Below, one piece after another: positions 1,968 to 63,002 of a stretch of DNA of 64,000 bases (the stretch's first letter is position 1; each line of letters starts with the position of its first letter). The stretch comes from Thermoanaerobaculia bacterium (lineage in GTDB: Bacteria; Acidobacteriota; Thermoanaerobaculia; Gp7-AA8). Both the position numbers and the translations under genes were made by a program. The notes under the pieces were generated by a model, which did no database searches, was not told the DNA's origin, and saw only the letters and a program-made list of their open reading frames with translations. The stretch covers positions 2,541-66,540 of the forward strand of contig DATHRD010000063.1 in NCBI GenBank assembly GCA_035482045.1, in the 5' to 3' direction.

Positions 1968-2960
1968 CTACGTTCGCTCCAGCAGGCTGCGCGCGGCGCG
2001 CACGAGCACACCCGTCTCACCACGGCGGAAGACGCTGCTCCAGGCGATTCGCAGCCATGCCACGAGAACCAGCGCCGGCCGGGCGACGACCGACCATCGC
2101 CGCCCGTAGTGCGCGGTTCCCCAATCGAGGAGGTCGGACCAGAGCTTTTCGGGGTCGTGATGCAGCTTGTTGTCGCCCGCGACCGTTCCGCCGATGGCGT
2201 GGACCACGCGCGCGTTCTCGACAACCGCGACCCGCCATCCGGCTTTGCGGGCGCGAAGGCAGAGATCGATGTCCTGGCAGTAGAAGCGGTAGCGCTCGTC
2301 GAGCGGGCCGGCCGCTTCCCAGACCTCACGCCGAATGGCCATCGCGGCGCCGCTGACCCAATCGATGTCGCGCTGTGAGCACAGACAAGAGTGTCTGTGC
2401 CACATAGGCGGTCGTTTGTGGCACAGACACTCCTGTCCGTGCCACATCGGCGATCGTTTGTGGCACAGACACTCCTGTCTGTGCTTTCTCCGAGACCCAG
2501 GGGACCGGAAGAAACGCGCCAGATGGCCGGCTCCGCTGACGACGCCGATCATCCAGGCCAGGGTGGGTGTCCGGCCGCCGCTCCATTGCGGACTCCCGTC
2601 TTCGTTGAGGAGCCGCCCGCCGGCCACGCCGAGGATGGGGTCAGCGTCGAACGCAGACAGGATGGCCTGCAGCGCCCCCTCTTCCACGATCGCGTCGCTG
2701 TTGAGCAGCACGATGATGCGGCCGCGGGTGGCGGCGACGCCGCGATTCGCCGCCGGCGCAAAGCCGCGGTTCGATTCGAGCCTCACGACCTGGACGGATG
2801 GCACCTCGCGCGCGAGCAGCTCCGCGGTTCCGTCGCTCGATCCGTCGTCGACGACGATGACCTCGGCCGCATCCGGCATCGAGGCCAGCACGGCGCGGCA
2901 GCAGCGCAACGTCATCGACGCCGTGTTGAACGTCGGGATGACGATGGAGAGGTCGGGCAT
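1968..2960 (-). CDS. family 2 glycosyltransferase; central loop carries an in-frame 35 aa insertion encoded by three hairpin repeat units
   Basis: N-terminus SIVIPTFN...VIVVDDGSSDGT...NRGFAPAANRG...LLNSDAIV is typical GT2 (GT-A fold); insertion RKHRQECLCHKRSPMWHGQECLCHKRPPMWHRHSCLC maps to repeat 2383-2488. Confidence 0.8.
   Translation of the reverse strand: MPDLSIVIPTFNTASMTLRCCRAVLASMPDAAEVIVVDDGSSDGTAELLAREVPSVQVVRLESNRGFAPAANRGVAATRGRIIVLLNSDAIVEEGALQAILSAFDADPILGVAGGRLLNEDGSPQWSGGRTPTLAWMIGVVSGAGHLARFFRSPGSRRKHRQECLCHKRSPMWHGQECLCHKRPPMWHRHSCLCSQRDIDWVSGAAMAIRREVWEAAGPLDERYRFYCQDIDLCLRARKAGWRVAVVENARVVHAIGGTVAGDNKLHHDPEKLWSDLLDWGTAHYGRRWSVVARPALVLVAWLRIAWSSVFRRGETGVLVRAARSLLERT
2383..2488. 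repeat. about 2.5 tandem copies of a 42 bp hairpin unit (GTGGCACAGACACTCCTGTCYGTGCCACATCGGCGATCGTTT; stem GGCACAGACA/TGTCTGTGCC) lying inside the GT2 CDS
   Basis: direct reading of the sequence; same hairpin recurs at 37668-37765 and 37905-37935. Confidence 0.7.
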
Positions 2961-2982: not shown

Positions 2983-3030
2983 ATCGCCGCCGAGCCGGCG
3001 GCGGTACAGCCGGCCAGCGGCCGGCGCTAC
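2983..3030. repeat. half copy of the GC-rich palindromic REP-A element (CGCCGCCGAGCCGGCGG...GGCCGGCGCTAC)
   Basis: matches the right arm of elements at 3285, 10597, 15253 and 58294. Confidence 0.4.
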
Positions 3031-3284
3031 GTTTACGGCGACATGCGATCATCAACGCCTTGGTCTTCATCATCGAACACGCTGCGGTGCTAGCGCTCCT
3101 GCTCGTGGTCGCTGCAGCGGCAGGGACGCTCGTGCTGGGATCGCAATCGTCGCTCGCTCTGCGGGCGGCGATGGGGATGGCTGTGGCCGGGCAGGTCTTC
3201 GTCGTCCTCGGGACGATCGGCGCGCTCCGGACGTGGAGCATCTGCGCGTTCGGAGCAATCGTGATCGTAGCGGCGATCGCCATC

Positions 3285-3384
3285 GTAGCGCCGGCGGCTC
3301 GCCGGCTGGATCGCCGGCGGCTCGCCGGCGAGTCAAACCGCCGCCGAGCCGGCAGCGGTCCGGCCGGCCAGCGGCCGGCGCTAC
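3285..3384. repeat. REP-A palindromic element (GTAGCGCCGGCGG ... CCGGCGCTAC), about 100 bp imperfect hairpin
   Basis: outer arms GTAGCGCCGGCGG / CCGGCGCTAC and inner GGCTGGAYCGCC motifs; five copies in this window. Confidence 0.6.
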
Positions 3385-3386
3385 TA

Positions 3387-4766
3387 ATGGCCCTCTTTAC
3401 CCTTCCCCTCTTCCTGCTCGCACTCTATCCGCCGATCGCGTTCGACGAGACTCTCTACCATCTGCCATTCGTCGCGGCGATCGCGCGTTCCGGCTCGATC
3501 GGATTCCTGACGGACATGCGCTTGCCGGTGTTCCCGCGGATCCACGAGTTGCTTTGCGTGCCGGCTTTTCTGCTGGCGGGCGACACGGCAACGCACCTCG
3601 TCGCGCTGGCCGAGGTGCTGATCCTGGCAGGGCTGATGATCGAATGGCCGTCGCAGCGGCTGGCCGGCTTTCTCGCGGCCGCGCTCTTCCTCGGCAATCC
3701 GATCGTCGTGCAGATGGCCACGATCACCTATGCCGAGGCGGCTTTGGCCCTCTTCGTCGCCGCAGGCGTCTATTGTTTGAACCGCAACGCCGCCGCGGCC
3801 GGGTTTCTCCTCGGTACGGCGTGCAGCGTGAAGTACCTCGGCTGGTACTTCGCCGTGGCCGCGCTCCTGTACCTGTTGCTTTTCGGCACGAACCGCCGGC
3901 GCATGATTCCCCTATTCGCCGGCACATTTGCGGTCGCTGTGGTTCCGATGTACGCCCGTATCCTCGCGCTCACGGGCAATCCGGTTTTTCCCTTTATGCC
4001 GAGGGTGTTCGGAACGAGCGCGTGGACGATGTCGCTGCCGGCGGCGATCGCGCCGTCCGTGCGCATCGTGAACGCCCTGCGCCTCTTCTGGGACATCACC
4101 TTCGCCCGCGGGCGCGTCAACTTCCAGCCGCCGTACTCGCCGCTGTTCGCCGTGGCGATGTTGATCACGGTGATTGCGGCGACGCGCGATCGCCGCGCTG
4201 CATTCCTTTCGGCAATCTGCGCGGGGTACATCGCCATCTTCACCTTCCTGCCCCAGGACTCCCGTTATCTGCTACCGCTGCTTCCGCTGGTCAGCATCAC
4301 CGCCGCGACCAGCGTCGTGCCGATGATGCGGAGGAAGATGGTCATCGCGCTGTCTCTGCTATCGATCGCACCGGGCGTGGCCTATGCCGGATACCGCATG
4401 GCGCGCCAGGGTCCTCCGCCGGTCGCCGCAACGCAACGGCAGCAGTATCTGGAGGCGCACGTTCCGGAGTACCGCGCGCTCGAGCACCGCGGACCGGGAC
4501 GGATCTACGAGTGCGGCGCGGAGCAGTTGAAGTACTTCGGAGGCGAGGAGTTGCTCGGCGACGTCACGGGCCCGTTCGCGAATCAGACGATCCTCGGCGG
4601 GAGCGCCGACGCCGAGGCGTTGTGGCGATCGTTGGAACGGCTTCGGATCCGCTATCTGCTCGTGTCGGCCCACTGTCCGGTTCAGTGGCAGCGTCTCCCC
4701 GCGGAGCCGCGATTCGAGCTCGTTTACGCGGATGCGGGGGCCAAGCTCTGGCGGTTGCGGGAGTGA
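3387..4766 (+). CDS. GT-C family membrane glycosyltransferase (ArnT / PMT / GT39-83-like), polytopic
   Basis: start MALFTLPLFLLALYPPIAFDETLY gives TM1 followed by a DE motif, as in ArnT/PMT enzymes; many predicted TM helices. The upstream part of ORF 2391..4766 runs through REP hairpins and was not taken as coding. Confidence 0.65.
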   Translation: MALFTLPLFLLALYPPIAFDETLYHLPFVAAIARSGSIGFLTDMRLPVFPRIHELLCVPAFLLAGDTATHLVALAEVLILAGLMIEWPSQRLAGFLAAALFLGNPIVVQMATITYAEAALALFVAAGVYCLNRNAAAAGFLLGTACSVKYLGWYFAVAALLYLLLFGTNRRRMIPLFAGTFAVAVVPMYARILALTGNPVFPFMPRVFGTSAWTMSLPAAIAPSVRIVNALRLFWDITFARGRVNFQPPYSPLFAVAMLITVIAATRDRRAAFLSAICAGYIAIFTFLPQDSRYLLPLLPLVSITAATSVVPMMRRKMVIALSLLSIAPGVAYAGYRMARQGPPPVAATQRQQYLEAHVPEYRALEHRGPGRIYECGAEQLKYFGGEELLGDVTGPFANQTILGGSADAEALWRSLERLRIRYLLVSAHCPVQWQRLPAEPRFELVYADAGAKLWRLRE

Positions 4767-4789: not shown

Positions 4790-5030
4790 ATCCAACTGTC
4801 ATCCTGAGGCTGCCGCAGCCGCGCCTATGGCGTTGGTGATAGCGCAAATTAAACGTCGCGGCGGAGGACGCCGAAGGACCCCCTGCGCGCTTGCCGGGTC
4901 GGGCGGCGGTAATCGCTCGATGCAAGCACGAAGGGGGTCCTTCGGCGTCCTCCGCCGCGACCTTTGATCTCAGCACGCACCAACATTAAGGGCGCGGCTG
5001 CGGCAGCCTCAGGATGACAGCTTTGATGAC
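4790..5030. repeat. about 240 bp nested imperfect palindrome (MITE-like or long stem-loop) in the intergenic gap between GT-C and the GT2-GT4 fusion gene
   Basis: GCTGTCATCCTGAGGCTGCCGCAGCCGCGCC ... GGCGCGGCTGCGGCAGCCTCAGGATGACAGC outer arms; CGCGGCGGAGGACGCCGAAGGACCCCCT ... AGGGGGTCCTTCGGCGTCCTCCGCCGCG inner arms. Confidence 0.6.
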
Positions 5031-5056: not shown

Positions 5057-7249
5057 GTGCGCCGGACTAGAATCGCGGCAGTGAATGTGCGCCGCTTGAT
5101 TCACCGCATCGCCGGCCGCCGGCCGCTCGACTGGACGCGCGGCGCGGGCAGGGAGGCGGCGGAGCGGCCTGGCACGGTCGATGTCGTCATTACGGTCTAC
5201 GGTGCCGCCACGGAGCTTCAGGCCTGCCTCGATAGTGTCGCCCGCGAGACCGATCTGGCTCGCCATCGCGTCGTGCTCGTCGTCGACGGGCCGCAGGACG
5301 AGGCAGTGGAATCGATCGTCACAAGCTTCGCGTCCGCACATTCAGAGTCGGTGCGCGTGCTCCGGAACGAGCGGAGGAGCGGCTTCGTTGTCGCGGCGAA
5401 CCTCGGGATGAACGACTCGACGGCGGATGTCGTCCTGCTCAACAGCGACACGATCGTCACGCCCCGCTGGATCGAGAAACTCATCGACGCCGCATACAGC
5501 TCCGGAGACATCGGAACGGTCACGCCGCTCTCGAATCACGCCACGATCTGCTCCGTTCCACAGGGCTGGGATGAGAACCTTCTGCCGGCGGGGTTCGACG
5601 CCGTCTCATTTGGGACCGTCGTGGAAACGGCATCGGCGCGCAGCTACCCGCGTCTCCCGACCGGTGTCGGGTCTTGTCTCTATATCCGCCGGGCGCTTCT
5701 CGATGACATCGGCTGCTTCGATGCCGCGCGCTTCGGACTCGGCTACGGAGAAGAGAACGATCTCTGTCTGCGCGCCCTGGCGCGCGGCTGGCTTCACATC
5801 GCCGACGATGCCACGTTCATCTACCACGCCGGTGCCGGCAGCTTCGGGTCCTCACGATTCGAACTGAGACGGCAGGCTCGGGCCACGCTGCGACGGCTGC
5901 ATCCCCGCTACGAGGCCACGATCGCGGAATTCATCCGCCTCGATCCGCTGGCGGCGGTACGCGCCCGGATTCGTTCCGCGCTCGGAGAAACAAACGCCCG
6001 CCAGCGGCGCGTCGTCCATCTCGTCCACGGCTGGCCTCCGTTCCAGCAGGCCGGCACCGAGCTCTATGCCTACTGGCTCGCACACCGGCAGAAGGCGACT
6101 CATCACGTGGCGGCCTACGTGCGCGGCGCCGATCCGACGCGCGAACATGGCGAAGCGCTGGAGCTGTTCGACGACGGCGTGCGGGTGCGGCTGATCACGA
6201 ACAACTTCACGGCGCGGAATCCGTTTCGAAGGAACGCGATCCACGATTCGCTGATCGAGCGCGACTTCACGCGCTTCCTGAAAGACGAGCGCCCCGATCT
6301 GCTGCACATCCATCACCTGGCCGGGCACGCATTCTCGTTGGCGGGAGTGGCCAGGCGGCTCGGCATCCCGATCGTGCTGCAGATTCAGGACTGGTGGTTT
6401 CTCTGTGCGCGCGTGAACCTCTTCGACCGGGACGGCAACCGCTGCACCGGACCGGCCGCAGCGAAGTGCGCGCGCTGCGCCACGCTGACGAAGATCGCCC
6501 CGGCCGGCGTGACCAATCGCCTGCTGCACCTTGCCCGGCGATCGGCCGCGCACGCCGCGATCCGCGCCTGCGACGCCTATGTGGCCGGCTCGAATGCCAT
6601 TCGCGACGACTACGTGCGCGCCGGAGTGATCCCGCCGTCGAAGCCGTTTCACGTGATCCCCTACGGCGTCAGCGTCGACATTCCGCGCCAGCCGCGGGAG
6701 CGGGCGCAGCGGCCGATCCGATTCGGCTACGTAGGCTCCATCGCTCCGCACAAGGGTGTTCACATCGCCGTCGAAGCGATGCGCGCGCTCGATCCATCGC
6801 AGGCCTCGCTGCACATCTGGGGCGATGCCACGGCTTTCCCTGACTACGTTCACAATCTGGAGCGGGGCGGCAACGCCTCAGTCATCTTCGAGGGTCGTTT
6901 CCGTGAGGATGAAAAGCCGCGCGTCTTCGCCTCGATGGACGTCCTGCTCGTCCCCTCCATTGGATTGGAGTCGTTCGGCCTGGCCGCGCGCGAGGCCATG
7001 ACCTGCGGAGTTCCGGTGATCGCATCGGAAGGCGGCGCGCTCTCCGAGATGTTCGCCGCGGGAGAGTGTGGCGCGCTCTTCCCGGCCGGCGACGCCGCGG
7101 CACTCCGCCACCTTTTGCGGCGTGTCGTCGACGATCCGCGCATCATCGATCGCTGGTCGGAGCGTCTGCCCCTGCCGAAGCGCAACGACGTCCACGCGGC
7201 CGAGATCGAAGCGGTGTATGACGCGGTGCTGGCGGAACACAAACGATGA
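5057..7249 (+). CDS. bifunctional glycosyltransferase: N-terminal GT2 (GT-A) domain fused to C-terminal GT4 (GT-B) domain
   Basis: N: VDVVITVYGA...VVLVVDGPQDEA...LLNSDTIVTPRW; C: FGYVGSIAPHKGVHIAVEAM...LLVPSIGLESFGLAAREAMTCGVPVIASEGGALSE (E-X7-E GT4 motif). Confidence 0.8.
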   Translation: MRRTRIAAVNVRRLIHRIAGRRPLDWTRGAGREAAERPGTVDVVITVYGAATELQACLDSVARETDLARHRVVLVVDGPQDEAVESIVTSFASAHSESVRVLRNERRSGFVVAANLGMNDSTADVVLLNSDTIVTPRWIEKLIDAAYSSGDIGTVTPLSNHATICSVPQGWDENLLPAGFDAVSFGTVVETASARSYPRLPTGVGSCLYIRRALLDDIGCFDAARFGLGYGEENDLCLRALARGWLHIADDATFIYHAGAGSFGSSRFELRRQARATLRRLHPRYEATIAEFIRLDPLAAVRARIRSALGETNARQRRVVHLVHGWPPFQQAGTELYAYWLAHRQKATHHVAAYVRGADPTREHGEALELFDDGVRVRLITNNFTARNPFRRNAIHDSLIERDFTRFLKDERPDLLHIHHLAGHAFSLAGVARRLGIPIVLQIQDWWFLCARVNLFDRDGNRCTGPAAAKCARCATLTKIAPAGVTNRLLHLARRSAAHAAIRACDAYVAGSNAIRDDYVRAGVIPPSKPFHVIPYGVSVDIPRQPRERAQRPIRFGYVGSIAPHKGVHIAVEAMRALDPSQASLHIWGDATAFPDYVHNLERGGNASVIFEGRFREDEKPRVFASMDVLLVPSIGLESFGLAAREAMTCGVPVIASEGGALSEMFAAGECGALFPAGDAAALRHLLRRVVDDPRIIDRWSERLPLPKRNDVHAAEIEAVYDAVLAEHKR

Positions 7250-8502: not shown

Positions 8503-8634
8503 TTCCCGCGTCTGGCACGCTTCACGCTATGCACACGATCAACCCGAGTCGATCGGGGACGCTGGCGAACGTAAGAGCGCGTCGATAATCCCTGAGGGGT
8601 CGACGCGCTTCGTGTTTATTGCGCCGCTTGCGCG

Positions 8635-8724
8635 GGCGTTGTCGGTTATCGGTTGTCGGGACCGCTACACGTGGTTCCCCGTCGCCCGTCTTTGACAACG
8701 AGACAACCGACAACCGACAACGCG
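8635..8724. repeat. heptad-repeat palindromic element (GCGTTGTCGGTTRTCGGTTGTCGGG ... GACAACCGACAACCGACAACGCGC)
   Basis: TTGTCGG heptads in inverted orientation around an about 40 bp core; copies at 9953, 62875 and expanded at 54957. Confidence 0.65.
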
Positions 8725-8732
8725 CGAAGCGC

Positions 8733-9952: not shown

Positions 9953-10051
9953 CGCGTTGTCGGTTGTCGGTTGTCTGCGCGCTGCGGCGCGCGTGGACGA
10001 GCGCTCAAGAACACGCCAGAGCCAACTCAACCGACAACCGACAACGCGCGC
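9953..10051. repeat. heptad-repeat palindromic element, second copy, on the other side of metK
   Basis: GCGCGTTGTCGGTTGTCGGTTGTC ... CAACCGACAACCGACAACGCGCGC; core resembles the copy at 62875. Confidence 0.65.
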
Positions 10052-10596: not shown

Positions 10597-10698
10597 GTAG
10601 CGCCGGCGGCTCGGCGGCTGGACCGCCAGCGGCTCGCTGGCGGCCTGTTTATCGCCGCCGAGCCGGCGGCGGTCCAGCCGGCGGGCCGCCGGCGCTAC
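10597..10698. repeat. REP-A palindromic element between leuS stop and lptE start
   Basis: GTAGCGCCGGCGGCTCGGCGGCTGGACCGCC...GGCGGTCCAGCCGGCGGGCCGCCGGCGCTAC. Confidence 0.65.
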
Positions 10699-13652: not shown

Positions 13653-13715
13653 GAACACTGTGCCGGCGATTTCAATCAGATTGTGAGAAATCCAGGTTTG
13701 GGTAGGCAATCGTCA

Positions 13716-14085
13716 GTCTCGGGGTATGGAACGACAGGTCTCGGGGTCTGGTGCGCCAAGTCCCGGGATCCGGAACGTCAGGTCTCGGGGTGCGGAACGT
13801 CAGGTCTCCGCGTGCGTAACGTCAGGTCCCGGGGTCCGGAACGTCTAGTCTCGGGGGTGGGGACGTCAGGTCCCGGGGTCCGGAACGTCTGGTTTCGGAG
13901 GTGGGGACGTCTAGTCTCAGGGGTGGGGACGTCAGGTCCCGGGGTCCGGAACGTCTGGTCTCGGGGGTGGGGACGTCAGGTCCCGGGGTCCGGAACGTCA
14001 GATCTCGGGGGTTGGGACGTCAGGTCTCGGGGTCCGGAACGTCAGGTTTCGGGGGTCGGGACCGGACGGGCGCACCCCCGGACTG
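13716..14085. repeat. tandem array of about 17 copies of a 22 bp unit (consensus GTCYCGGGGTSCGGAACGTCAG), with a 44 bp higher-order alternation
   Basis: direct reading; units are contiguous with no spacers, so not CRISPR. Confidence 0.9.
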
Positions 14086-14215
14086 GACGATTCACCGCCC
14101 GTACTGAACCGTTCACAGTGCGGACTGGACAATCAGTGCGAGGAACCGGGCGATTCACCGTGCGGACCGGACGATCCACCGTGCGGACCGGACGCCGCGC
14201 ACAGGGCCCGTCACG
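14086..14215. repeat. second short tandem array, about 6 copies of an about 21 bp unit (CGGACYGGACGATYCACCGTG)
   Basis: direct reading; abuts the first array and the dtd stop. Confidence 0.7.
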
Positions 14216-15252: not shown

Positions 15253-15358
15253 GTAGCGCCGGCGGCCTCGCCGGCTGGACCGCCGGCGGCTCGCCGGCGA
15301 CATTCTCAAAACCGCCAGCGAGCCGCTGGCAGTCCAGCCGCCGAGCCGGCGGCGCTAC
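15253..15358. repeat. REP-A palindromic element between ssb and the hemolysin-III gene
   Basis: GTAGCGCCGGCGGCCTCGCCGGCTGGACCGCC...CAGTCCAGCCGCCGAGCCGGCGGCGCTAC. Confidence 0.65.
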
Positions 15359-18627: not shown

Positions 18628-18742
18628 GTGATTGGTAGATTAGTAGATTAGTCGATTAGTGGATTAGAACCGATCAGAACCAGGCATCCGGACCACTCCA
18701 CGAATCCACTGATCCACTAATCTACTAATCTACTAATCTTCC
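18628..18742. repeat. AT-rich imperfect palindrome built from TAGATTAG octamer repeats, between two same-strand genes
   Basis: GATTAGTAGATTAGTCGATTAGTGGATTAG ... CCACTAATCTACTAATCTACTAATC. Confidence 0.55.
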
Positions 18743-32394: not shown

Positions 32395-32705
32395 ACTCGC
32401 GGAGTTCGTGATTAGACTTCGCGAGTCCATGAATTGACTCTGGGAGGCAATTAATTGACTCCGGGAGGCCATGAATTGACTCCGGGAGGCAATTAATTTG
32501 ACTCTGCGAGGCCATGAATTGACTCCGGGAGGCAATTAATTTGACTCTGGGGGGCAATTAATTGACTCCGGGAGGCAATTGATTTGACTCTGGGAGGCCA
32601 TGAATTGACTCGGGAAGGCCATGAATTGACTCTGGGAGGCCATGAATTGACTCCGGGAGGCCATGAATTGACTCCGGGAGGCAATTAATTGACTCCGGGA
32701 GTCCG
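32395..32705. repeat. tandem array of about 14 copies of a 21-22 bp unit (CATGAATTGACTCCGGGAGGC alternating with AATTAATTGACTCCGGGAGGC)
   Basis: direct reading; contiguous units with no spacers. Confidence 0.9.
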
Positions 32706-32789
32706 TGAATGGACGCGTTGGCTCACGAACGAGACCCTCGCCAACGACAGAACGCTCCGTCGATCCGACGTCTTGCCTCTGAATACGCC

Positions 32790-35243: not shown

Positions 35244-37052
35244 TCATCGACCGTGCTCACCCGTCTCGACGCGCAGCAACTGCACCGCCAGCGTACGGGG
35301 ATCCTGGTTGTGCACGAGGGCGCCCGGCGAGAACGATCGGGAGGAACGAAAGCGCAGGTCGATCCGCGGTGCGGCGGGAAAGGCCAGATTCGTTGTGACT
35401 GCTTCCTTCCCGACTTTGGCGACGATGGCGGGTTGTCCGTTGACTGATATTGCGACGGTGTCGGTGTCGTAGGGCGCGTCTGACGTGAGACGAAGCACCA
35501 ACGAGGCCGCGCCGCCGTTGGCATGCGGAAGACGAATCGCGGCGTCAGGCGAGAGCCAGCGCCATTCCTCGCCGGCAGGAGTGTGCTCGAGCGCATAGAC
35601 ACCGTAAAGCGGCTGATACCTCTGCCCCGCCCTCTGCGGCTCGATCGACACCTCCCGATACAGATCACGTGTCAGCTTCCAGTACGCGTCGCTCTCCGGC
35701 CACCCGAAAATGTGCGCGCCGGCCTCGCGCGAGCCGCCGTTCGTGAAGAGGAACAACGGGACGTCGGGACGGTCGTAGAGCTCCGCGATCGCCTTCTCGA
35801 CCGGCAGGACGCGGAAGCGTGAGAGAAGGTACTCGGCGTGCGGTTTCAGGGCTACGTCGTAACCGATCACGCTGTTCGGCGGCAGGGTTGCGTTCGCGAA
35901 CGCGGCGGCGGCGGCGGGAGGGGACGGCAGTCTCGTTCGCGTGCCGACGAGCGGCCATACGTAAACGAGCGTGGCGATACCGAGGATCGCCGTCACGATC
36001 CACGGGGACGCGGCCAGCTTCACGCTTTGTCGAATGACCCCCAGGCCGAGTGCCGCAAGCAGCGCGAAGAGGATCATGATCGGCAGGCTGTACCGCGGAC
36101 CGTCAGCCGGGTCCATCCAACCGAGCTCGAAGGTCAATTGCACGACGGTAAAGACGAGCAGCGGCAGGATCGTCGAGCGCAACCTGTCGCGACAAAGCAA
36201 TCGCACGAAGGCGGCGATGCCGAAGACGATGCAGACGAACAGCGGAAGCGTCACGTACTTCGAGCCCCACGGATGCAGCACGAAACGGACCGCCAGTTGC
36301 GCCATCGACATCGCGCCGCGGGACACGGAAGCGTCGTGCGTGGCGACGTACTGCATCTGCTTGGTCTCATACAGTCGCAGCGCCTCAAAGCCTCCCGCCG
36401 CATCGGCGAGCGGCAGGAACCACATGGCCGACAGCAGACCGAAAGCGATCAGGCACGCCGCCCTCTTGCGCATCGTCCGCATCTGCAGCAGCGCGACGAT
36501 GAGCATCGGCGCGATCGGAACGAGGAGTTGCGGACGCGTACCGATCGCAGCGGACGTCCAGATGCCGATGGCGATGGCGTTCCGTTCGTGCTCCTCGCGA
36601 TGCGGCGCGCTGACGGCGAAGAGCGACAGGCCGAGGAACATCATGGCCGGCCCGTCGGAAAGAGCGAGCGTGCCGTGTACGAGCATCGACGCGGAGAAGT
36701 AGAAGAGCAGCGCGCCGCAAACGGCCAGGTCGGGATCGTCGATCCAGTTGCGAAAGGCGCGCGCGATGGCGACGAATCCGATCGGTGCCGCGACGACGCT
36801 GAAGACGATCAGCGCCCGCCACGGGTCGTGTACGACCGCATCGAAGACCTTCCCGAGAATGATGAGCAACGGGTAGCCGGGCGGGTGCGGATGGTAGCGC
36901 GACGGATCGAAATTACGGACAGCCTCGGCGAAGAGGAACTCGTCGTTCTCCCAGGGCGTGCGCGGCATGGTGAGGACGCGTGAGACCAGCACGACGACGG
37001 CGCCGAGCGCTTCGCGCCACCACCCCCGTACAATCGCCTGTGTGGGATTCAT
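35244..37052 (-). CDS. GT-C family membrane glycosyltransferase (ArnT/PMT-like), polytopic
   Basis: TM1 then ...PWENDEFLFAEAV... (DE motif in the first loop); >10 predicted TM segments; directly upstream of the polyprenyl-P GT2 on the same strand. Confidence 0.65.
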   Translation of the reverse strand: MNPTQAIVRGWWREALGAVVVLVSRVLTMPRTPWENDEFLFAEAVRNFDPSRYHPHPPGYPLLIILGKVFDAVVHDPWRALIVFSVVAAPIGFVAIARAFRNWIDDPDLAVCGALLFYFSASMLVHGTLALSDGPAMMFLGLSLFAVSAPHREEHERNAIAIGIWTSAAIGTRPQLLVPIAPMLIVALLQMRTMRKRAACLIAFGLLSAMWFLPLADAAGGFEALRLYETKQMQYVATHDASVSRGAMSMAQLAVRFVLHPWGSKYVTLPLFVCIVFGIAAFVRLLCRDRLRSTILPLLVFTVVQLTFELGWMDPADGPRYSLPIMILFALLAALGLGVIRQSVKLAASPWIVTAILGIATLVYVWPLVGTRTRLPSPPAAAAAFANATLPPNSVIGYDVALKPHAEYLLSRFRVLPVEKAIAELYDRPDVPLFLFTNGGSREAGAHIFGWPESDAYWKLTRDLYREVSIEPQRAGQRYQPLYGVYALEHTPAGEEWRWLSPDAAIRLPHANGGAASLVLRLTSDAPYDTDTVAISVNGQPAIVAKVGKEAVTTNLAFPAAPRIDLRFRSSRSFSPGALVHNQDPRTLAVQLLRVETGEHGR

Positions 37053-37113
37053 CCGCGCCTTAATCGTACTGCACACCGTTTTTCACCGGCGTCGGCTGCG
37101 CGAGCGCGTCCAC

Positions 37114-37665
37114 ATGCTGATCCGCTTCCTGACCTGCCCGGTGCTCCGCGTTCTCGACGCGGTCCCACCCGGGGCCTCTCTCCTCGACATCGGCGCCGGT
37201 CACGGTCTCTTCGCCGTGCTCGCGCAGGCCCGCGGCGTGCGTCGCATCGTCGTAGTCGATCCCGATGCGCGGAAGGTGCGGCCGCTGGCCGGCATCGAGC
37301 TCGTCATCGGTTTCGACGATTCCGTTCGCGGAACCTTCGACGCGATCTCGATCATCGACGTGCTGTACAAGATCCCGATCGATGAGTGGGATGCGCTTCT
37401 GACCCGCTGCCGCGAGCGCCTCGCCGAGGGCGGCGTTCTCGTCATCAAAGAACAGGACCCGACCGCACGTCTGAAGAACGCATGGAACGCCATCCAGGAG
37501 CGGATCGCGACCGCGCTGCACCTGACGCTCGGACATTCGTTCAGCTACGAGGCGCCGGCCGCCTTCAGGGCACGATTGGAGCGGCTGGGGTTCAGCGACG
37601 TGAAAGCGCGCCGAATCGACTTCGCCTACCCGCACGCGCACGTGCTGTACATCGCGCGTCGGTGA
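37114..37665 (+). CDS. class I SAM-dependent methyltransferase
   Basis: LLDIGAGHGLFAVLAQARGVRRIVVVDPD (motif I); start chosen at MLIRFL to avoid overlapping the divergent GT-C gene. Confidence 0.55.
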   Translation: MLIRFLTCPVLRVLDAVPPGASLLDIGAGHGLFAVLAQARGVRRIVVVDPDARKVRPLAGIELVIGFDDSVRGTFDAISIIDVLYKIPIDEWDALLTRCRERLAEGGVLVIKEQDPTARLKNAWNAIQERIATALHLTLGHSFSYEAPAAFRARLERLGFSDVKARRIDFAYPHAHVLYIARR

Positions 37666-37667
37666 GG

Positions 37668-37765
37668 AGCACAGACAAGAGTGTCTGTGCCACATCGGAC
37701 CTCGGATTTCTCGGCCGTCGTGCAAACGGCAGCATCAATGTGGCACACACACTCTTGTCTGTGCT
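37668..37765. repeat. two inverted copies of the GCACAGACA..TGTCTGTGC-CACAT hairpin element between convergent genes (likely a bidirectional terminator)
   Basis: GAGCACAGACAAGAGTGTCTGTGCCACATCGG ... ATGTGGCACACACACTCTTGTCTGTGC. Confidence 0.6.
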
Positions 37766-37787: not shown

Positions 37788-38573
37788 TCAGAGGTTCACC
37801 AACTCCAGATGCTCGATCTCTCTCTCCAGGAAATCGCCGGCGATCCGCCGGAACCTCTCCTCGGCGTCGGTGACGAGAAACGTGTGTTTCGACGCACCGG
37901 CTTGCCGCTCAGACAGGAGTGTCTGTGCCACATGCCGCGCGGTCGTCTCGGCGCTGTCGACGATGATCACATCCGGGCCGACGACCTGCTCGATCGTGCC
38001 GCGAAGGATCGGGTAGTGCGTGCAGCCGAGGACCAGCGTGTCGATGCCGGCGTCGAGCAGCGGCTCGAGGTAGACCTCAGCCACCTCGCGGGCCACGTGC
38101 GTGTTCGCCCATCCTTCCTCGGCCAGCGAGACGAAGAGCGGCGCGGCGGACTCGATCACCTCGATCGTTGCATCGAGACTCTTGATCGCGCGCGTATACG
38201 CCTTCGAACGCACGGTCCCCTCGGTGGCGATGACGCCGACCCGTCCGCGCGTCCGTTGCACCGCCGCCCGTGCCCCCGGCTCCACGACGCCGATGACCGG
38301 GATCGGCAGCGTCTCCTGCAACGCCGGGAGCGCCGCCGCTGTGGCCGTGTTGCACGCCACGACGAGCATGCCGATGCCGCGATCGAGGAGATGCGCGGCG
38401 GCCTGCAGCGAGTAACGGATCACCGTGTCGGCTGACTTCGTACCGTAGGGCACCCGGGCGGAATCGCCGAGGTAGATCAAGGAATGATGAGGGAGGGCGC
38501 GGGCGATCTCGCGGAAAACGGTGAGGCCGCCGACGCCCGAATCGAAGATGCCGACGCTAAACGGCATCGGCAT
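37788..38573 (-). CDS. murI: glutamate racemase
   Basis: FSVGIFDSGVGGLTVFREI...VVACNTA...LGCTHYP; one copy of the 25 bp hairpin element lies inside the CDS at 37905-37935. Confidence 0.9.
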   Translation of the reverse strand: MPMPFSVGIFDSGVGGLTVFREIARALPHHSLIYLGDSARVPYGTKSADTVIRYSLQAAAHLLDRGIGMLVVACNTATAAALPALQETLPIPVIGVVEPGARAAVQRTRGRVGVIATEGTVRSKAYTRAIKSLDATIEVIESAAPLFVSLAEEGWANTHVAREVAEVYLEPLLDAGIDTLVLGCTHYPILRGTIEQVVGPDVIIVDSAETTARHVAQTLLSERQAGASKHTFLVTDAEERFRRIAGDFLEREIEHLELVNL

Positions 38574-39960
38574 CTTCGGCCGCCACCATCGCCCCGCCAC
38601 CCTCGCGCTTGATGTTGTACTGCTCGATCTTCTTGTAGAGATTCGAGCGCGGCGTGTCGATCGCGTCCGCTGTCTTCGAGACGTTCCAGCCGTTCTCGCG
38701 CAGCTTGGCCAGGATGAAGGCCTTCTCCGCCTCGTCCTTGAAATCCTGCAGCGTGGCCAGGCGCATAGTCGAAGAGATGATGTCCGCCGCGGCGCGGAAG
38801 AACTCCGCGGGCAGATCGGAGATGTCGATCGCGTCGGCGGGAACCATGATCACGATCCGTTCGATCATGTTGCGCAACTCCCGGACGTTGCCGCGCCAGG
38901 CGGCTTCCTGCATCGCTTTCAGCGCCGAAGGCGTGAACTTCTTCCCATGCCGGTTGTACTGCTCTGAGAACAACGTGACGAAGTGCTGCACCAGGGCCGG
39001 AATGTCCTCTTTCCGCTCGCGCAGGGGCGGCGTGCGCACGGGGATGACGTTCAGGCGATAGAAGAGATCTTCGCGAAAACGTCCGGCACGGATCTCCTCC
39101 ACGATGTCCTTGTTCGTCGCGGCGATGACGCGCACGTCGACCTTGATCACGGTCGCCGAGCCGACCGGCTCGACTTCCCCTTCCTGGAGCACGCGCAACA
39201 CTTTCGCCTGCGTACGCAGCGACATGTCACCGACTTCGTCGAGAAAGATCGTCCCGCCGTCGGCGGCGACGAACTTTCCCGTCTGCTTCCGCACCGCGCC
39301 GGTGAACGATCCTTTCTCGTGGCCGAACAACTCCGATTCGATGAGCTCCTCGGGGATGGCCGCGCAGTTCACCTGGACGAACGGCAGGGCCGCGCGGGAC
39401 GACCGGCGGTGGATCTCCCGCGCCACCAGTTCCTTGCCGGTACCCGATTCTCCCGTGATCAGCACCGTCGCCTTCGTCGGCGCGGCCATCTCGATCTGGG
39501 CCCTCAGCTCGCGCATCGGCAACGAGTCACCGACGATCTGGTAGTCGCGGGCCTCGCGCTCGCGCAGCTCGCCGACCTCTTCCTCGAGCTTTTGCTGCCG
39601 GACGGCGTTGCGGACCGAGAGCAGGAGCTTGTCGCGGTTGAGCGGCTTCTCCAGGAAATCGAACGCGCCGCGCTTCGTACACTCGACCGCGGTGGAGATG
39701 TCGCCGTGTCCCGAGACCATGATCACCGGCGACGGCACCTTCTGCTCTTTCAGGTTGTCGAGGACTTCGATGCCGTCGAGCACAGGCATCTTGATATCCA
39801 GCAGGATGGCGTCGTACGGCGCCGCCGTGTGCGTCGCCTTCTCGATCCCGTCCTGCCCCGACCGCGCCTCGTCGATGCGGTACCCCTCGTACTCCAGCGT
39901 CATCCGGATCGCTTCCCGGATGGCGGTCTCGTCGTCGATCACCAGAATTCGAAACGCCAT
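38557..39960 (-). CDS. sigma-54-dependent response regulator (NtrC family: REC + AAA+ + HTH)
   Basis: MAFRILVIDDE...D55-type receiver; GESGTGKELVAREIH; GAFTGA; ESELFGHEKGSFTGA. Confidence 0.9.
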   Translation of the reverse strand: MAFRILVIDDETAIREAIRMTLEYEGYRIDEARSGQDGIEKATHTAAPYDAILLDIKMPVLDGIEVLDNLKEQKVPSPVIMVSGHGDISTAVECTKRGAFDFLEKPLNRDKLLLSVRNAVRQQKLEEEVGELREREARDYQIVGDSLPMRELRAQIEMAAPTKATVLITGESGTGKELVAREIHRRSSRAALPFVQVNCAAIPEELIESELFGHEKGSFTGAVRKQTGKFVAADGGTIFLDEVGDMSLRTQAKVLRVLQEGEVEPVGSATVIKVDVRVIAATNKDIVEEIRAGRFREDLFYRLNVIPVRTPPLRERKEDIPALVQHFVTLFSEQYNRHGKKFTPSALKAMQEAAWRGNVRELRNMIERIVIMVPADAIDISDLPAEFFRAAADIISSTMRLATLQDFKDEAEKAFILAKLRENGWNVSKTADAIDTPRSNLYKKIEQYNIKREGGGAMVAAEDADAV

Positions 39961-47227: not shown

Positions 47228-47336
47228 AGCTCAGAAGGATGAAGGATGAAGGATGAACGGTGAAAGCGTGAAGCAGACAAGAGCTTACCTCTTCATCACC
47301 TTCATTCTTCATCCTTCACTCTTCACTCTTCATCCT
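47228..47336. repeat. imperfect hairpin built from (GAAGGATGAA)n / (TTCATCCTTC)n repeats between mobA stop and moaC start
   Basis: GAAGGATGAAGGATGAAGGATGAACGG ... CTTCATCCTTCACTCTTCACTCTTCATCCTTCACC. Confidence 0.55.
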
Positions 47337-47877
47337 TCACCCTTCCCCACTCTTCCGGCGTATTCACATTCATCAACGGCTCGCCCGCGAACGTCGATCG
47401 CAACTCCTCCTCGGCGACGATGTCGGCCTCTTCCCCGCTGGTGAGGCCTTTGAGATCGTACCGCCCGGCCGCGACCCGCTGCTCGATCCGCGCCAGCAGC
47501 TCGGGCGCATAACCGGCGCAGAGCATCTGGGTCTTGCCGCTCCAGACAGGCGCGAGGAAGAGCGCAGGCGAGCGCTCGAAACGCTCGCGAAGATGCCGCA
47601 GGATCGCGGTGGTGATGAGCGGATAGTCGACGGCCAGGATGAAGCAGCGCCGGCGGGCATGATCGAGAGCACGCGCGACGCCGAAGATCGGGGCCTGTTC
47701 CTCGTGCGCGCTCTCGTAGATCGTCGTGATCGCCGCCGCAGTTCCGCCGTGCCGCTGCACGGCGATCAACTCCTCGAACGCTGACGATGCCGCGGCCACG
47801 ACGCGGTCGAGGAACAGTTCCGTCTTCGGACGTCCCATCCTTCGCGACTGACCACCGATCAGGATGTAGCAGTTCAC
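47323..47877 (-). CDS. mobA: molybdenum cofactor guanylyltransferase
   Basis: GTG start giving VNCYILIGGQSRRMGRPK...; C-terminal NVNTPEEW matches MobA; the long upstream extension in the ORF track was rejected. Confidence 0.8.
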   Translation of the reverse strand: MNCYILIGGQSRRMGRPKTELFLDRVVAAASSAFEELIAVQRHGGTAAAITTIYESAHEEQAPIFGVARALDHARRRCFILAVDYPLITTAILRHLRERFERSPALFLAPVWSGKTQMLCAGYAPELLARIEQRVAAGRYDLKGLTSGEEADIVAEEELRSTFAGEPLMNVNTPEEWGRVKDEE

Positions 47878-53710: not shown

Positions 53711-55513
53711 TCAGCTCCTCTTGTGCCGCCGTCTCCGCTTCGTCGCCTCCACCGGCGCCTCGGCGTCGGCGGCGCGGCGCACCCTCTGCGCGAACTGCTG
53801 CCACTGGCGAAAGGCGTCCACGTGTTTTCCTGACGAGAGCGCGTAGAGCTCGAGCAGCGCCAACGCGTCGCTGAACGGCTCGCGGTAGACGAACTTGAAC
53901 TGCGCCCGACGATCGGTCGGCGGCTCCAGCAGGCGCCAGAGCGTGTCGAGGGCCGTCTCGATCTGATGCCGCGTCCCCGCCGCCAGCGCCATGCGCGTAC
54001 ACATCGGCTGAATCAGCTCGCGGATGAAGAGGATCACTTCGCCGATCTTCATGCGCGACGCGCGCCGCGCCTCCTCCCGCTCCAACTCCTGGAGAATCCA
54101 CGGAAGGAACAGCACCGAGAGCAGCACCGGATCGGAGATCTTCCGCCCGGCCTGCACGGTGCGGTCGAGCACCTCCAGCATCTTCCAGAAGTACTGCGAC
54201 TGATCCCCGACGATGGCCTTGTAGACCTCGGGGACGAGTGGATCGAGCAGGCCGCTGTCGACCATCAGGCGGATGGCCCCGCGCGACCAGCCGCGCCGCA
54301 GCAGTTCGAGGATCTCCTCGGAAACGCGCGGGGCGGAGGCCTTCAGGATCTCGGTCTTGTGACGGATGATGGCGTCATAGGTGGCCGGCTCGATCTCGAA
54401 GCCGAGGCGTGAGGCAAACTCGATGGCCCGCATCATCCGCACCGGATCCTCGCGGAAACGGACGTCGGGATCGCCGATCACCCGCACCCGTTTCGCCTCC
54501 AGGTCTTCCAGCCCGCCGACGTAGTCGATCACCGAGAAGTCGGCGATGTTGTAGAAGAGCGCGTTGATGGTGAAGTCGCGCCGCCGCGCGTCCTGCAGGG
54601 GCGACCCGAAGGTGTTGTCGTCGGTGATCAGCAGCTCCTCGGCATCGTCGGCCCGCTCGGGCTCGCGCCGGAAGGTGGCCACCTCGACCAGCATGTCCTG
54701 AAAGATGATGTGTACGAGGCGGAAGCGCCGGCCGATGATGCGGCTGTTGCGGAAGAGGCGCCGGATCTCGGCCGGATGCGCGTCCGTGGCCAGGTCGAAA
54801 TCCTTCGGCGTCCCGCTCATCAGCAGATCGCGTACGCTGCCGCCGCAGAGATAGGCGCGGTAGCCGCTGCGGTGCAACCGGTAGAGGACTTTGAGGACGT
54901 TCTCCGGGATCCGCCGCCGCGAGATGGGGTGGTCGCTGCGGTCGATGACGACGCCGGGATCGTCGGGGATAGGTTCGACGGGGATTGGTTCGACGGGGGT
55001 CGGGAGTCGGGGGTCGGGGGTCGGAGAGAGGGTCAGATCAGGCTCATCGTTGTCGGCTGTCAGTTTTCGGTTCGCGGGGGTCGGGGGTCGGGGGTCGGGA
55101 GTCGGAGGTAGGTCACTGCTGGTTGTCGGTTGTCGGTTGACGGTTATCGCGGGGGCCGGGGGTCGGGGGTCGGGCGTCGGAGAGAGAGCGTTGTCGGTTG
55201 TGGGTTGTGGGCTGTCGGTTGTCGCGGGGGTCGGGAGTCGGGGGTCAAGGGTCGGAGAGAGATTGTTGTCAGTTGTCGGTTGAGGGTCGTCGGTGATCAG
55301 GTGAGATGGCAGGTCCGGCTCATGAGAACTGACGAGCTCCGACCGCCGACCCCCGACTCCCGACTCCCGTTCAGGGTCTGGTTCACCGGAGGCGTCTAAC
55401 TCCGACCCCCGACCCCCGACCCCCGACTCCCGTTCAGGATCAGGTCCATCGGAGGCGACTAACTCCGACCCCCGACCCCCGACTCCCGACCCCCGATTCT
55501 CGATCCCGCTCAT
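53711..55513 (-). CDS. pcnB: poly(A) polymerase I / tRNA nucleotidyltransferase family protein with an about 200 aa low-complexity N-terminal extension
   Basis: core NVLKVLYRLHRSGYRAYLCGGSVRDLL...PKDFDLATDA...RRDFTINALFY matches PcnB. No canonical start codon lies between the repeat region and the core. The ATG at 55513 overlaps the lepB stop (ATGA). Confidence 0.75.
   Translation of the reverse strand: MSGIENRGSGVGGRGSELVASDGPDPERESGVGGRGSELDASGEPDPERESGVGGRRSELVSSHEPDLPSHLITDDPQPTTDNNLSPTLDPRLPTPATTDSPQPTTDNALSPTPDPRPPAPAITVNRQPTTSSDLPPTPDPRPPTPANRKLTADNDEPDLTLSPTPDPRLPTPVEPIPVEPIPDDPGVVIDRSDHPISRRRIPENVLKVLYRLHRSGYRAYLCGGSVRDLLMSGTPKDFDLATDAHPAEIRRLFRNSRIIGRRFRLVHIIFQDMLVEVATFRREPERADDAEELLITDDNTFGSPLQDARRRDFTINALFYNIADFSVIDYVGGLEDLEAKRVRVIGDPDVRFREDPVRMMRAIEFASRLGFEIEPATYDAIIRHKTEILKASAPRVSEEILELLRRGWSRGAIRLMVDSGLLDPLVPEVYKAIVGDQSQYFWKMLEVLDRTVQAGRKISDPVLLSVLFLPWILQELEREEARRASRMKIGEVILFIRELIQPMCTRMALAAGTRHQIETALDTLWRLLEPPTDRRAQFKFVYREPFSDALALLELYALSSGKHVDAFRQWQQFAQRVRRAADAEAPVEATKRRRRHKRS
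54957..55505. repeat. about 550 bp expansion of heptad repeats: (GGGGTCG)n and (GTTGTCG)n blocks followed by their inverted complements (CGACCCC)n
   Basis: direct reading; same TTGTCGG heptads as the elements at 8635, 9953 and 62875. Confidence 0.85.
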
Positions 55514-58293: not shown

Positions 58294-58332
58294 GTAGCGC
58301 CGGCGGTCCGGCCGGCGAGCCGCCGGCGCTAC
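58294..58332. terminator. short REP-A palindrome (GTAGCGCCGGCGG TCCGGCCGGCGAG CCGCCGGCGCTAC) just after the tonB stop
   Basis: perfect 13 bp arms; position 12 nt after the tonB stop codon. Confidence 0.6.
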
Positions 58333-62874: not shown

Positions 62875-63002
62875 GCGCGTTGTCGGTTGTCGGTTGTCGG
62901 GCGCTGCGGAGCGCGTGGGAACGAGCGTTCAAGACGCGCGCCCACGTCCGACATTCAACGGGCACCAACAACCAACCGACAACCGACAACCGACAACGCC
63001 GC
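62875..63002. repeat. heptad-repeat palindromic element separating the two outer-membrane paralogs
   Basis: GCGCGTTGTCGGTTGTCGGTTGTCGGG ... CCGACAACCGACAACCGACAACGCC; core similar to the copy at 9953. Confidence 0.7.

Follow-up and report, generated by a model that had tools for sequence, protein, structure and literature searches.

A 64-kb stretch of DNA (hereafter the window) from a Thermoanaerobaculia (Acidobacteriota) metagenome-assembled genome (MAG) contains a GT2 glycosyltransferase gene whose open reading frame (ORF) is lengthened by an array of three short hairpin repeats. These copies belong to a family that resembles repetitive extragenic palindromic (REP) sequences and REP doublets forming hairpins (REPINs); they probably inserted in frame in a loop of the enzyme and then changed copy number in place. 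The direct evidence covers the repeat family and its architecture, the in-frame position in the loop, purifying selection on the gene, variation in copy number and nucleotide conservation of the stems. In-frame palindromic insertion is already known; what is new is a family from a poorly studied class.

The host gene (1968..2960, minus strand) encodes a 330-aa GT2 family protein with a GT-A fold, as judged from the ORF, Pfam, AlphaFold2, Foldseek and the ratio of nonsynonymous to synonymous substitution rates (dN/dS). The ORF matches PF00535 (Glycos_transf_2) in Pfam with E = 1.9e-27 and 96.7 bits. In the orthologue alignment, the residues NSD (87-89, a DxD-type motif) and DDGS (38-41) are invariant, and the window protein retains all of the columns that are invariant in 40 orthologues. 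Between the window gene and insert-bearing orthologues dN/dS is 0.17-0.20, and the gene is under purifying selection with dN/dS of about 0.2. The core of the AlphaFold2 model is a confident GT-A fold, with predicted local distance difference test (pLDDT) values mostly above 88, and Foldseek matches the model to GT-A enzymes with E = 1e-11 to 1e-12, WrtF and GalNAc-T2 being among its hits. The protein is present as an identical three-hairpin allele on two contigs of different source (ENA and JGI).

The REP-derived insert spans positions 2379..2486 on the minus strand and encodes residues 159-194 (KHRQECLCHKRSPMWHGQECLCHKRPPMWHRHSCLC). The evidence for it is its absence from empty-site orthologues, the pLDDT and the predicted RNA fold. 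Within it are three 22-nt cores of the form GCACAGACA-N4-TGTCTGTGC, each with 0 or 1 mismatch and placed 42 nt apart. No core matches occur in shuffled sequence, and Tandem Repeats Finder reports a period of 42, 2.2 copies and 92% match at 2392-2484. The original prediction had described a hairpin repeat array inside this ORF; the array is present, and its translation is exactly as given there. Core 1 (2379..2400, GCACAGACA AGAG TGTCTGTGC) is the last in gene orientation. Its loop is AGAG rather than the CTCC of cores 2 and 3, and it is therefore inverted relative to them. It is followed by a 20-nt spacer (2401..2420, CACATAGGCGGTCGTTTGTG) that in its gene-sense form is like the spacer allele of the orthologous locus L002. 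Core 2 (2421..2442, GCACAGACA CTCC TGTCCGTGC, 1 mismatch) belongs to an extra 42-nt unit that is missing from the nearest relative, L195. The second 20-nt spacer (2443..2462, CACATCGGCGATCGTTTGTG) is the same as the single spacer of L195, and core 3 (2463..2484, GCACAGACA CTCC TGTCTGTGC) is the first in gene orientation. The two spacers are near-identical, with 3 differences. When folded as RNA, the 136-nt array region is predicted to form a single long hairpin with the middle copy at its tip (-86.7 kcal/mol, z = -10.5). A CRISPR array was considered and rejected: there are only three repeats, the spacers are near-identical and the array lies within an ORF.

The insert makes the GT2 loop 36-38 residues longer than in empty-site orthologues. 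In the AlphaFold2 model of the window protein, the insert loop (residues 158-196) has pLDDT below 50. When an empty-site orthologue is modelled, its secondary-structure elements follow one another in the same order, and its loop (residues 152-164, pLDDT 50-62) is poorly defined too. The loop is thus of low confidence with and without the insert, and the models indicate that the insert lengthens a loop that was already unconstrained. The proposal that a REP-like element is tolerated as an in-frame coding insert in a loop of the GT-A fold agrees with the low pLDDT of the loop and with the existence of repeat-free orthologues.

The insertion site was compared in 120 homologues and 80 metagenome loci. 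In most homologues, the stretch from GVVSG to VDWVSG is 15-20 residues long and contains no repeat-derived sequence. The repeat at the GT2 site is confined to one clade of close orthologues, where the insert directly precedes the invariant DWVSGA motif. Aligning orthologues thus places repeat-free and repeat-bearing sequences at the same site, and the orthologues have there either a short repeat-free loop or repeat-derived sequence, not a homologous non-repeat segment in place of the insert. All GT2 carriers read the insert in the same frame. Selection for frame, which the original prediction invoked, is a trivial expectation for any insert that survives in a constrained gene, and 42 is a multiple of 3.

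At the DNA level, the orthologues carry 0, 1, 2 or 3 hairpins in the loop. A canonical full-length doublet of the type designated A, with 75-nt spacing and extended terminal inverted repeats, is present in L011, L020 and L048. The spacing is 48 nt in L003, L006-8 and L154 and 42 nt in the clade of the window (L195, L002, P0002-P0008). A single hairpin is found in L051, L010 and L009 and, in a decaying state, in P0034. There is no hairpin in L004 and L005 (protein P0017), and three hairpins are found only in the window allele. In a neighbour-joining tree with the loop masked, the singlet sequences are dispersed among doublet carriers, which argues for repeated collapses from doublet to singlet. 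The empty-site P0017 falls inside the carrier clade of the window in 183 of 200 bootstraps, and in the P0017 loci the neighbouring gene is also closest to the neighbour of the window gene. Both placements indicate that the insert was lost or replaced there.

The insert is common to orthologues down to about 70% protein identity, and the synonymous divergence (dS) between two insert carriers is 0.38. With third codon positions up to 52% different, this wide sharing indicates that the insert is old, and the suggestion of a recent insertion does not hold for the insert as a whole. The flanks of the insert differ by carrier clade, with RRGPRKK[insert]SQRD in one and RR(KSK)[insert]E in the other. 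One insertion followed by trimming, or two insertions, are possible explanations for these clade-specific flanks.

Doublets of the same family also occur at the edges of GT2 orthologues. Three lie just upstream of the start codon (L014:3024-3120, L017:3009-3105 and L025:3000-3096). In P0049, a doublet at the 5' edge has been translated by gene callers as an N-terminal extension (..KPVWHRHSCLCF..). A further doublet is located at the 3' end of an orthologue (L012:3886-4036), and the corresponding protein, P0043, ends in ..SVPH. The GT2 gene neighbourhood is one that the hairpin family has colonised repeatedly.

What sets the lineage of the window apart is the third 42-nt unit alone. The L195 gene, which encodes P0002, shares 94.6% DNA identity with the window gene, and the sole gap between them is exactly 42 nt. 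The L195 array reproduces unit 1 of the window without change and, after it, the terminal hairpin. Unit 1 and the extra unit are 90% identical, with 4 differences in 42 positions, and the spacer of the extra unit is a single base away from that of L002, a more distant relative. For both reasons the extra unit is not a fresh duplication. Either the duplication preceded the split and the unit was lost in L195, or unequal exchange took place between diverged alleles.

The history that we propose begins with an inverted doublet that would have landed in a poorly constrained surface loop of the GT2 enzyme. Its retention would follow from its being open in all frames, from its adding nothing but a disordered peptide and from the enzyme remaining functional. 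The spacer was then presumably reduced to 20 nt in the clade of the window, where one 42-nt unit of hairpin plus spacer may have been gained, or differentially lost, by slippage or unequal recombination. In several other lineages, recombination between the two near-identical palindromes would have collapsed the doublet to a singlet, and in at least one lineage the insert appears to have been lost. Three parts of this history we infer: that copy number changed by slippage or recombination, that an enzyme mobilised the family, and what keeps the stems invariant.

The repeat family was delineated by scanning one-genome-per-species GTDB contigs with the exact 20-nt pattern GGCACAGACA-N4-TGTCTGTGCC. 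At least 113 stretches match the pattern. Among the matches listed, about two thirds are from Thermoanaerobaculia, and several Thermoanaerobaculia MAGs hold many hairpin loci each. The matched loci contain 142 exact hairpins within 542 kb, and the 64-kb window contains six hairpin copies where 0 are expected. The family unit is ATGTG-GCACAGACA-CTCT-TGTCTGTGC(C), and its consensus is also written (C)AATGTGGCACAGACACTCTTGTCTGTGCC. The hairpin loop is preferentially AGAG/CTCT, and the flank is asymmetric (CACAT; ...GTGCCACAT(TG)). Type A doublets have the form GGCACAGACAAGAGTGTCTGTGCCACATTG, a variable spacer and CAATGTGGCACAGACACTCTTGTCTGTGCC, with a start-to-start distance of 39-139 nt and a mode of 72-79; over the doublets as a whole the modal distance is 72-80 nt. 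In type B doublets, the units have the opposite orientation and enclose a conserved core of about 55 nt. Inverted pairs predominate (36 '-+' and 39 '+-', 75 in all, vs 7 direct), and there are 60 singlets. The great majority of hairpins (207/216) lie outside good ORFs, with 9/216 inside.

The type B core reads ..CCGGCCGGAGCCG..GCTGAGGGCTTGCGATC..GAGTC.TGGCGAGACCC and is found in both orientations (L157:4227-4330, L174:1352, L121:6314, L138:5723, L108:5106 and about 15 further loci). Type B looks like a distinct subfamily, resembling miniature transposable elements bounded by inverted repeats (MITEs), with the same hairpin as terminal repeat.

In their anatomy the hairpins are a REP/REPIN-like family without the classical tag. 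Neither a GTAG nor a CGTC tag is present in the consensus unit of the family. No target-site duplication is detected around the doublets, whose 8-nt outer flanks match on average at 2.2-2.8/8 positions, about the level of chance. A tblastn search of the window and 195 repeat-bearing loci (812 kb) returned no match to a REP-associated tyrosine transposase (RAYT), the probe being an approximate RAYT-like consensus. Clustering of 3209 ORFs from the repeat-bearing loci all-against-all, with recurrent families compared with Pfam, gave no enrichment of transposases near the copies; the ORF families that recur there are histidine kinases, ABC transporters, kinases and peptidases only. There is no Rfam match in the whole window, and a literature search with the hairpin sequence gave only miR-214-related human and animal matches. 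The repeat family appears to be undescribed so far.

The same stem, GTGGCACAGACA...TGTCTGTGCCAC, is also present in MAGs of Planctomycetota, Verrucomicrobiota, Sumerlaeota and Terriglobia. Its loop there is usually TTCC/GGAA, and some of the copies form close inverted pairs with 31-nt spacing. About 0.5 chance matches of this stem are expected in the whole collection. The loci outside Thermoanaerobaculia include L085, L089, L097, L098, L101, L106, L112, L124, L129, L131, L145, L146, L150, L158, L164, L165, L173, L186, L187, L189 and others. A single REP stem common to several phyla is unusual.

The other copies in the window that the original prediction had pointed out, an intergenic pair and one copy in murI, are both real. 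The pair is a type A inverted doublet (REPIN-like) at 37668..37765, with cores at 37669-37690 and 37743-37764 that are 96% complementary. It lies in the 122-nt gap between two convergent genes, a methyltransferase gene (36958-37665, plus strand) and murI (37788-38600, minus strand). It had been read as a convergent-gene terminator, but this function is not supported by the terminator and promoter scan, which found no intrinsic terminator, no T-tract and no promoter at 37668-37765; the position is usual for REPs. The copy in murI (37907..37934, minus strand, core 37907-37928) is a single hairpin with its CACAT flank, read in another frame as HVAQTLLSE. In the six closest MurI orthologues, the corresponding segment is (Y/H)VAQTLLSV(P/R)Q, the repeat in another frame, located in a variable linker. 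The remaining orthologues have the unrelated linker ACVRAAIGASSNGAA there, with a length difference of one residue, and the window MurI shows no gain in length relative to solved MurI structures.

Another coding occurrence lies outside the window, in the Thermoanaerobaculia MAG SMAG_U12840. In this MAG, a doublet of the GGCACAGACA family (L179:1477-1562) is located in the ORF of an Lhr-type helicase of at least 960 aa, in the linker between the DEAD_assoc and WH3 domains. Its two hairpins are read in two frames, the first as HRQECLCH and the second as VAQTLLSVP. The alignment of this Lhr to the solved M. smegmatis Lhr begins directly after the insert.

The peptide encoded in GT2 was searched for separately. 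A HMMER scan of the 38-aa insert against 1.84 billion representative proteins gave 15 matches at E <= 0.001, of which six were inspected, and no protein family built on the insert peptide. Two of the six are repetitive but unrelated proteins, three look like spurious ORFs derived from the repeat, and one is a mis-called N-terminus. A peptide search with six frame translations joined by X spacers gave 7 candidates only. The mis-called N-terminus is that of P0257 (111 aa; ..LHRQECLCHKTQAMWHRHSCLCS..), which stands ahead of an apparent pyridoxal phosphate-dependent dehydratase. The 42-nt short-spacer doublet therefore occurs outside the GT2 gene as well.

Several observations count against the proposed history, or show it to be incomplete. 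Stems were compared in 14 carriers at 18 stem positions per hairpin, together with 141 flanking codons. Only 6 of 468 stem positions (1.3%) are mismatched to the family consensus, whereas the flanking codons differ from those of the window at 25-52% of third positions and at 6-22% of first and second positions. When the three full-length inserts at this site are compared pairwise, their hairpins and left terminal flank differ by 0-3% and their central spacer by 39%. The stems retain the rare codon AGA (2% of the Arg codons across eight genes of the window), and also TGT, GCA and ACA. In GT2 and MurI, the length of the singlet states is close to that of the repeat-free loops, which simple insertion does not predict. 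Finally, a mobilising enzyme was not found in the window or the repeat-bearing loci, and the family also lacks the tag and a target-site duplication. The frozen stems and the rare codons mean that a passive, decaying insert is not the whole story. Neither selection at the protein level nor neutral decay can explain the frozen synonymous sites of the stems. Their invariance could come from gene conversion, with the genomic copies as a pool, or from selection on the hairpin.

If selection is the cause, the hairpin would be functional at GT2 as a nucleic-acid structure, in mRNA stability, in translation pausing or as a protein-bound site in DNA or RNA. The contrast between the stems and their diverged surroundings, the preserved rare codons and the very stable fold predicted for the array (z = -10.5) are in line with such a role. 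So is a compensatory stem variant, GGCA/TGCC, which occurs 7 times against 1 half-changed copy, and so is the presence of the 13-bp stem in Planctomycetota, Verrucomicrobiota, Sumerlaeota and Terriglobia. Yet the gene is intact and similarly constrained whether a lineage has 0, 1, 2 or 3 hairpins, so no particular hairpin state is needed locally. The absence of an Rfam match and of a terminator signal also counts against this function, and the pattern is equally to be expected from gene conversion with the hundreds of identical copies in the genome. A local function of this kind is therefore rather unlikely, although it is the strongest of the alternatives. A broader form of the idea is that the stem GTGGCACAGACA-N4-TGTCTGTGCCAC is more than selfish DNA, namely a sequence-specific functional element across Acidobacteriota and the Planctomycetota/Verrucomicrobiota group, recognised by a conserved protein or active as an RNA/DNA structure, and kept by purifying selection even in coding DNA. 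This too we regard as speculative, with the odds clearly on the other side. If it were true, the copies in GT2, MurI and Lhr would be natural experiments that reveal selection at synonymous sites.

Selection on the protein would instead apply if the Cys/His-rich peptide (HRQECLCH...WHRHSCLC) had been recruited as a functional loop, for example one that binds metal. The insert encodes 6 Cys and 7 His in 36 residues, its reading frame is the same in all GT2 carriers and it has persisted over a long divergence. Recruitment is nevertheless improbable, as the loop is predicted to be disordered with pLDDT below 50, close relatives differ in their number of motifs (0 to 3), MurI and Lhr translate the element in other frames, and the scan of 1.84 billion representative proteins gave no family built on the peptide. 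It would also leave the frozen synonymous sites and the rare codons unexplained. The original prediction had raised a phase-variable loop. On this reading the array would be a contingency locus whose copy number switches often within populations and varies the length of the loop. The tandem 42-nt unit, a multiple of 3, would fit such a locus, as would 2 vs 3 copies between lineages that are 94.6% identical. This variation is seen between lineages and not visibly within one, however, and the three-copy allele is identical on two contigs. The tandem units differ at 4/42 positions and are not freshly duplicated, a frameshift is impossible with a unit that keeps the frame, and 2.5 units are far below typical hypermutable tracts; we consider switching of this kind very improbable. 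Least probable of all, to the point of being barely credible, is an array made or enlarged by mis-assembly of dispersed copies. Metagenome assemblers can be misled by short dispersed repeats, but the frame is intact, more than 30 orthologues with related inserts at the same codon are collinear with the array in its flanks, and the same allele is present in two assemblies of different source. In-frame insertion of REP/REPIN-like copies in the GT2 loop, followed by changes of copy number in place, is the reading that we prefer.

REPs and REPINs have been described previously (Bertels & Rainey 2011, PMC3116915; Di Nocera et al. 2013, PMC3733652), and intragenic in-frame REPs and dimers that encode 20-30 aa are known in several phyla, with repair genes among the hosts (PMC3733652). 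The family described here shares with them a short hairpin, rich in G+C, that is present in many copies, for the most part outside genes and frequently where two genes converge. It likewise occurs mainly as inverted doublets able to fold as a longer hairpin, has no target-site duplication, persists for long in a lineage and has occasional in-frame genic copies, including in DNA-repair genes (here the Lhr helicase). It differs in being without a GTAG/CGTC tag and in having no RAYT match to the approximate probe in the window and the 812 kb of loci. A further difference is that its 13-bp stem and 4-nt loop are kept across the class, with the stem in other phyla, whereas classical REPs are usually specific to a species or genus.

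Rickettsia palindromic elements (RPEs), cited in PMC3733652 as its references 13-14, are the classic in-frame palindromic inserts. They resemble the GT2 insert in behaviour only: they are in-frame palindromes in functional genes, they encode a loop or linker peptide and they are present or absent among orthologues. RPEs are longer (RPE-1) or CGTC-tagged, are found in reduced intracellular Alphaproteobacteria and are unrelated in sequence. Unlike them, the element described here changes copy number in place (1, 2 or 3 hairpins). MITEs that make in-frame fusions are known as well, for example the Coxiella QMITEs (PMC5896051). The likeness to MITEs (Coxiella QMITEs, PMC5896051; Neisseria Correia/NEMIS) is that both are non-coding, about 65-160 nt long, have terminal inverted repeats of about 30-40 nt around a variable or conserved core, and include some copies that overlap ORFs in frame. 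In contrast to MITEs, no target-site duplication was detected and no parent insertion sequence with the same ends was seen, and the terminal repeat forms a perfect hairpin in its own right, which occurs as a singlet too.

Other repeats are present in the window. A second REP family, which is GTAG-tagged and forms inverted doublets GTAGCGCCGGC...GCCGGCGCTAC, is found at 3020-3030, 3285-3384, 10597-10698, 15253-15358 and 58294-58332. The doublet at 3285-3384 is in frame in the neighbouring membrane-protein gene (3060-4766, plus strand, Pfam SF2091) and encodes the peptide ...RRLDRRRLAGESNRRRAGSGPAGQRPALL.... The SF2091 orthologues in L003, L006-9, L154 and L100 are without 16-19 aa exactly at this doublet. 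Together with the GT2 insert, this means that two adjacent genes hold in-frame inserts from two different repeat families. At 4796-5020, between the SF2091 gene and a GT2-GT4 fusion gene (5057-7249), two 99-nt arms that are 85% complementary lie 27 nt apart and form a potential large hairpin or MITE-like element.

The window also contains inverted heptamer arrays, in which (GTTGTCG)n faces (CGACAAC)n, at 8633-8726, 9956-10045, 62879-62997 and 55049-55507. In a block of about 460 nt, (GTTGTCG)n is mixed with (CGGGGGT)n, and the complements follow further on. The heptamer pattern has 21 matches where 0.7 are expected. Two tandem arrays, at 13700-14194 (22-nt unit, about 16 copies or more) and 32415-32714 (21-nt unit, about 14 copies, GACTCCGGGAGGCCATGAATT), have no CRISPR-like unique spacers. 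Hairpins of short tandem units are found at 18634-18742 and 47234-47345, with (GATTAGTA)n facing its complement and (GAAGGAT)n facing (CCTTCAC)n.

The GT2 gene is an essential-looking gene that hosts a palindromic repeat. At one codon position, and across orthologues whose synonymous sites have largely diverged, the doublet is seen at full length, shortened, expanded to a triplet, collapsed to singlets and lost. The frozen arms, set against a drifting spacer and drifting synonymous sites, make it a clean test case for the old question of how REPs and REPINs are kept up, whether through gene conversion, through re-insertion or through selection acting on the hairpin. These inserts are relevant to annotation and to protein-family alignments from soil metagenomes. 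In the Thermoanaerobaculia, several REP families write peptides into proteins.

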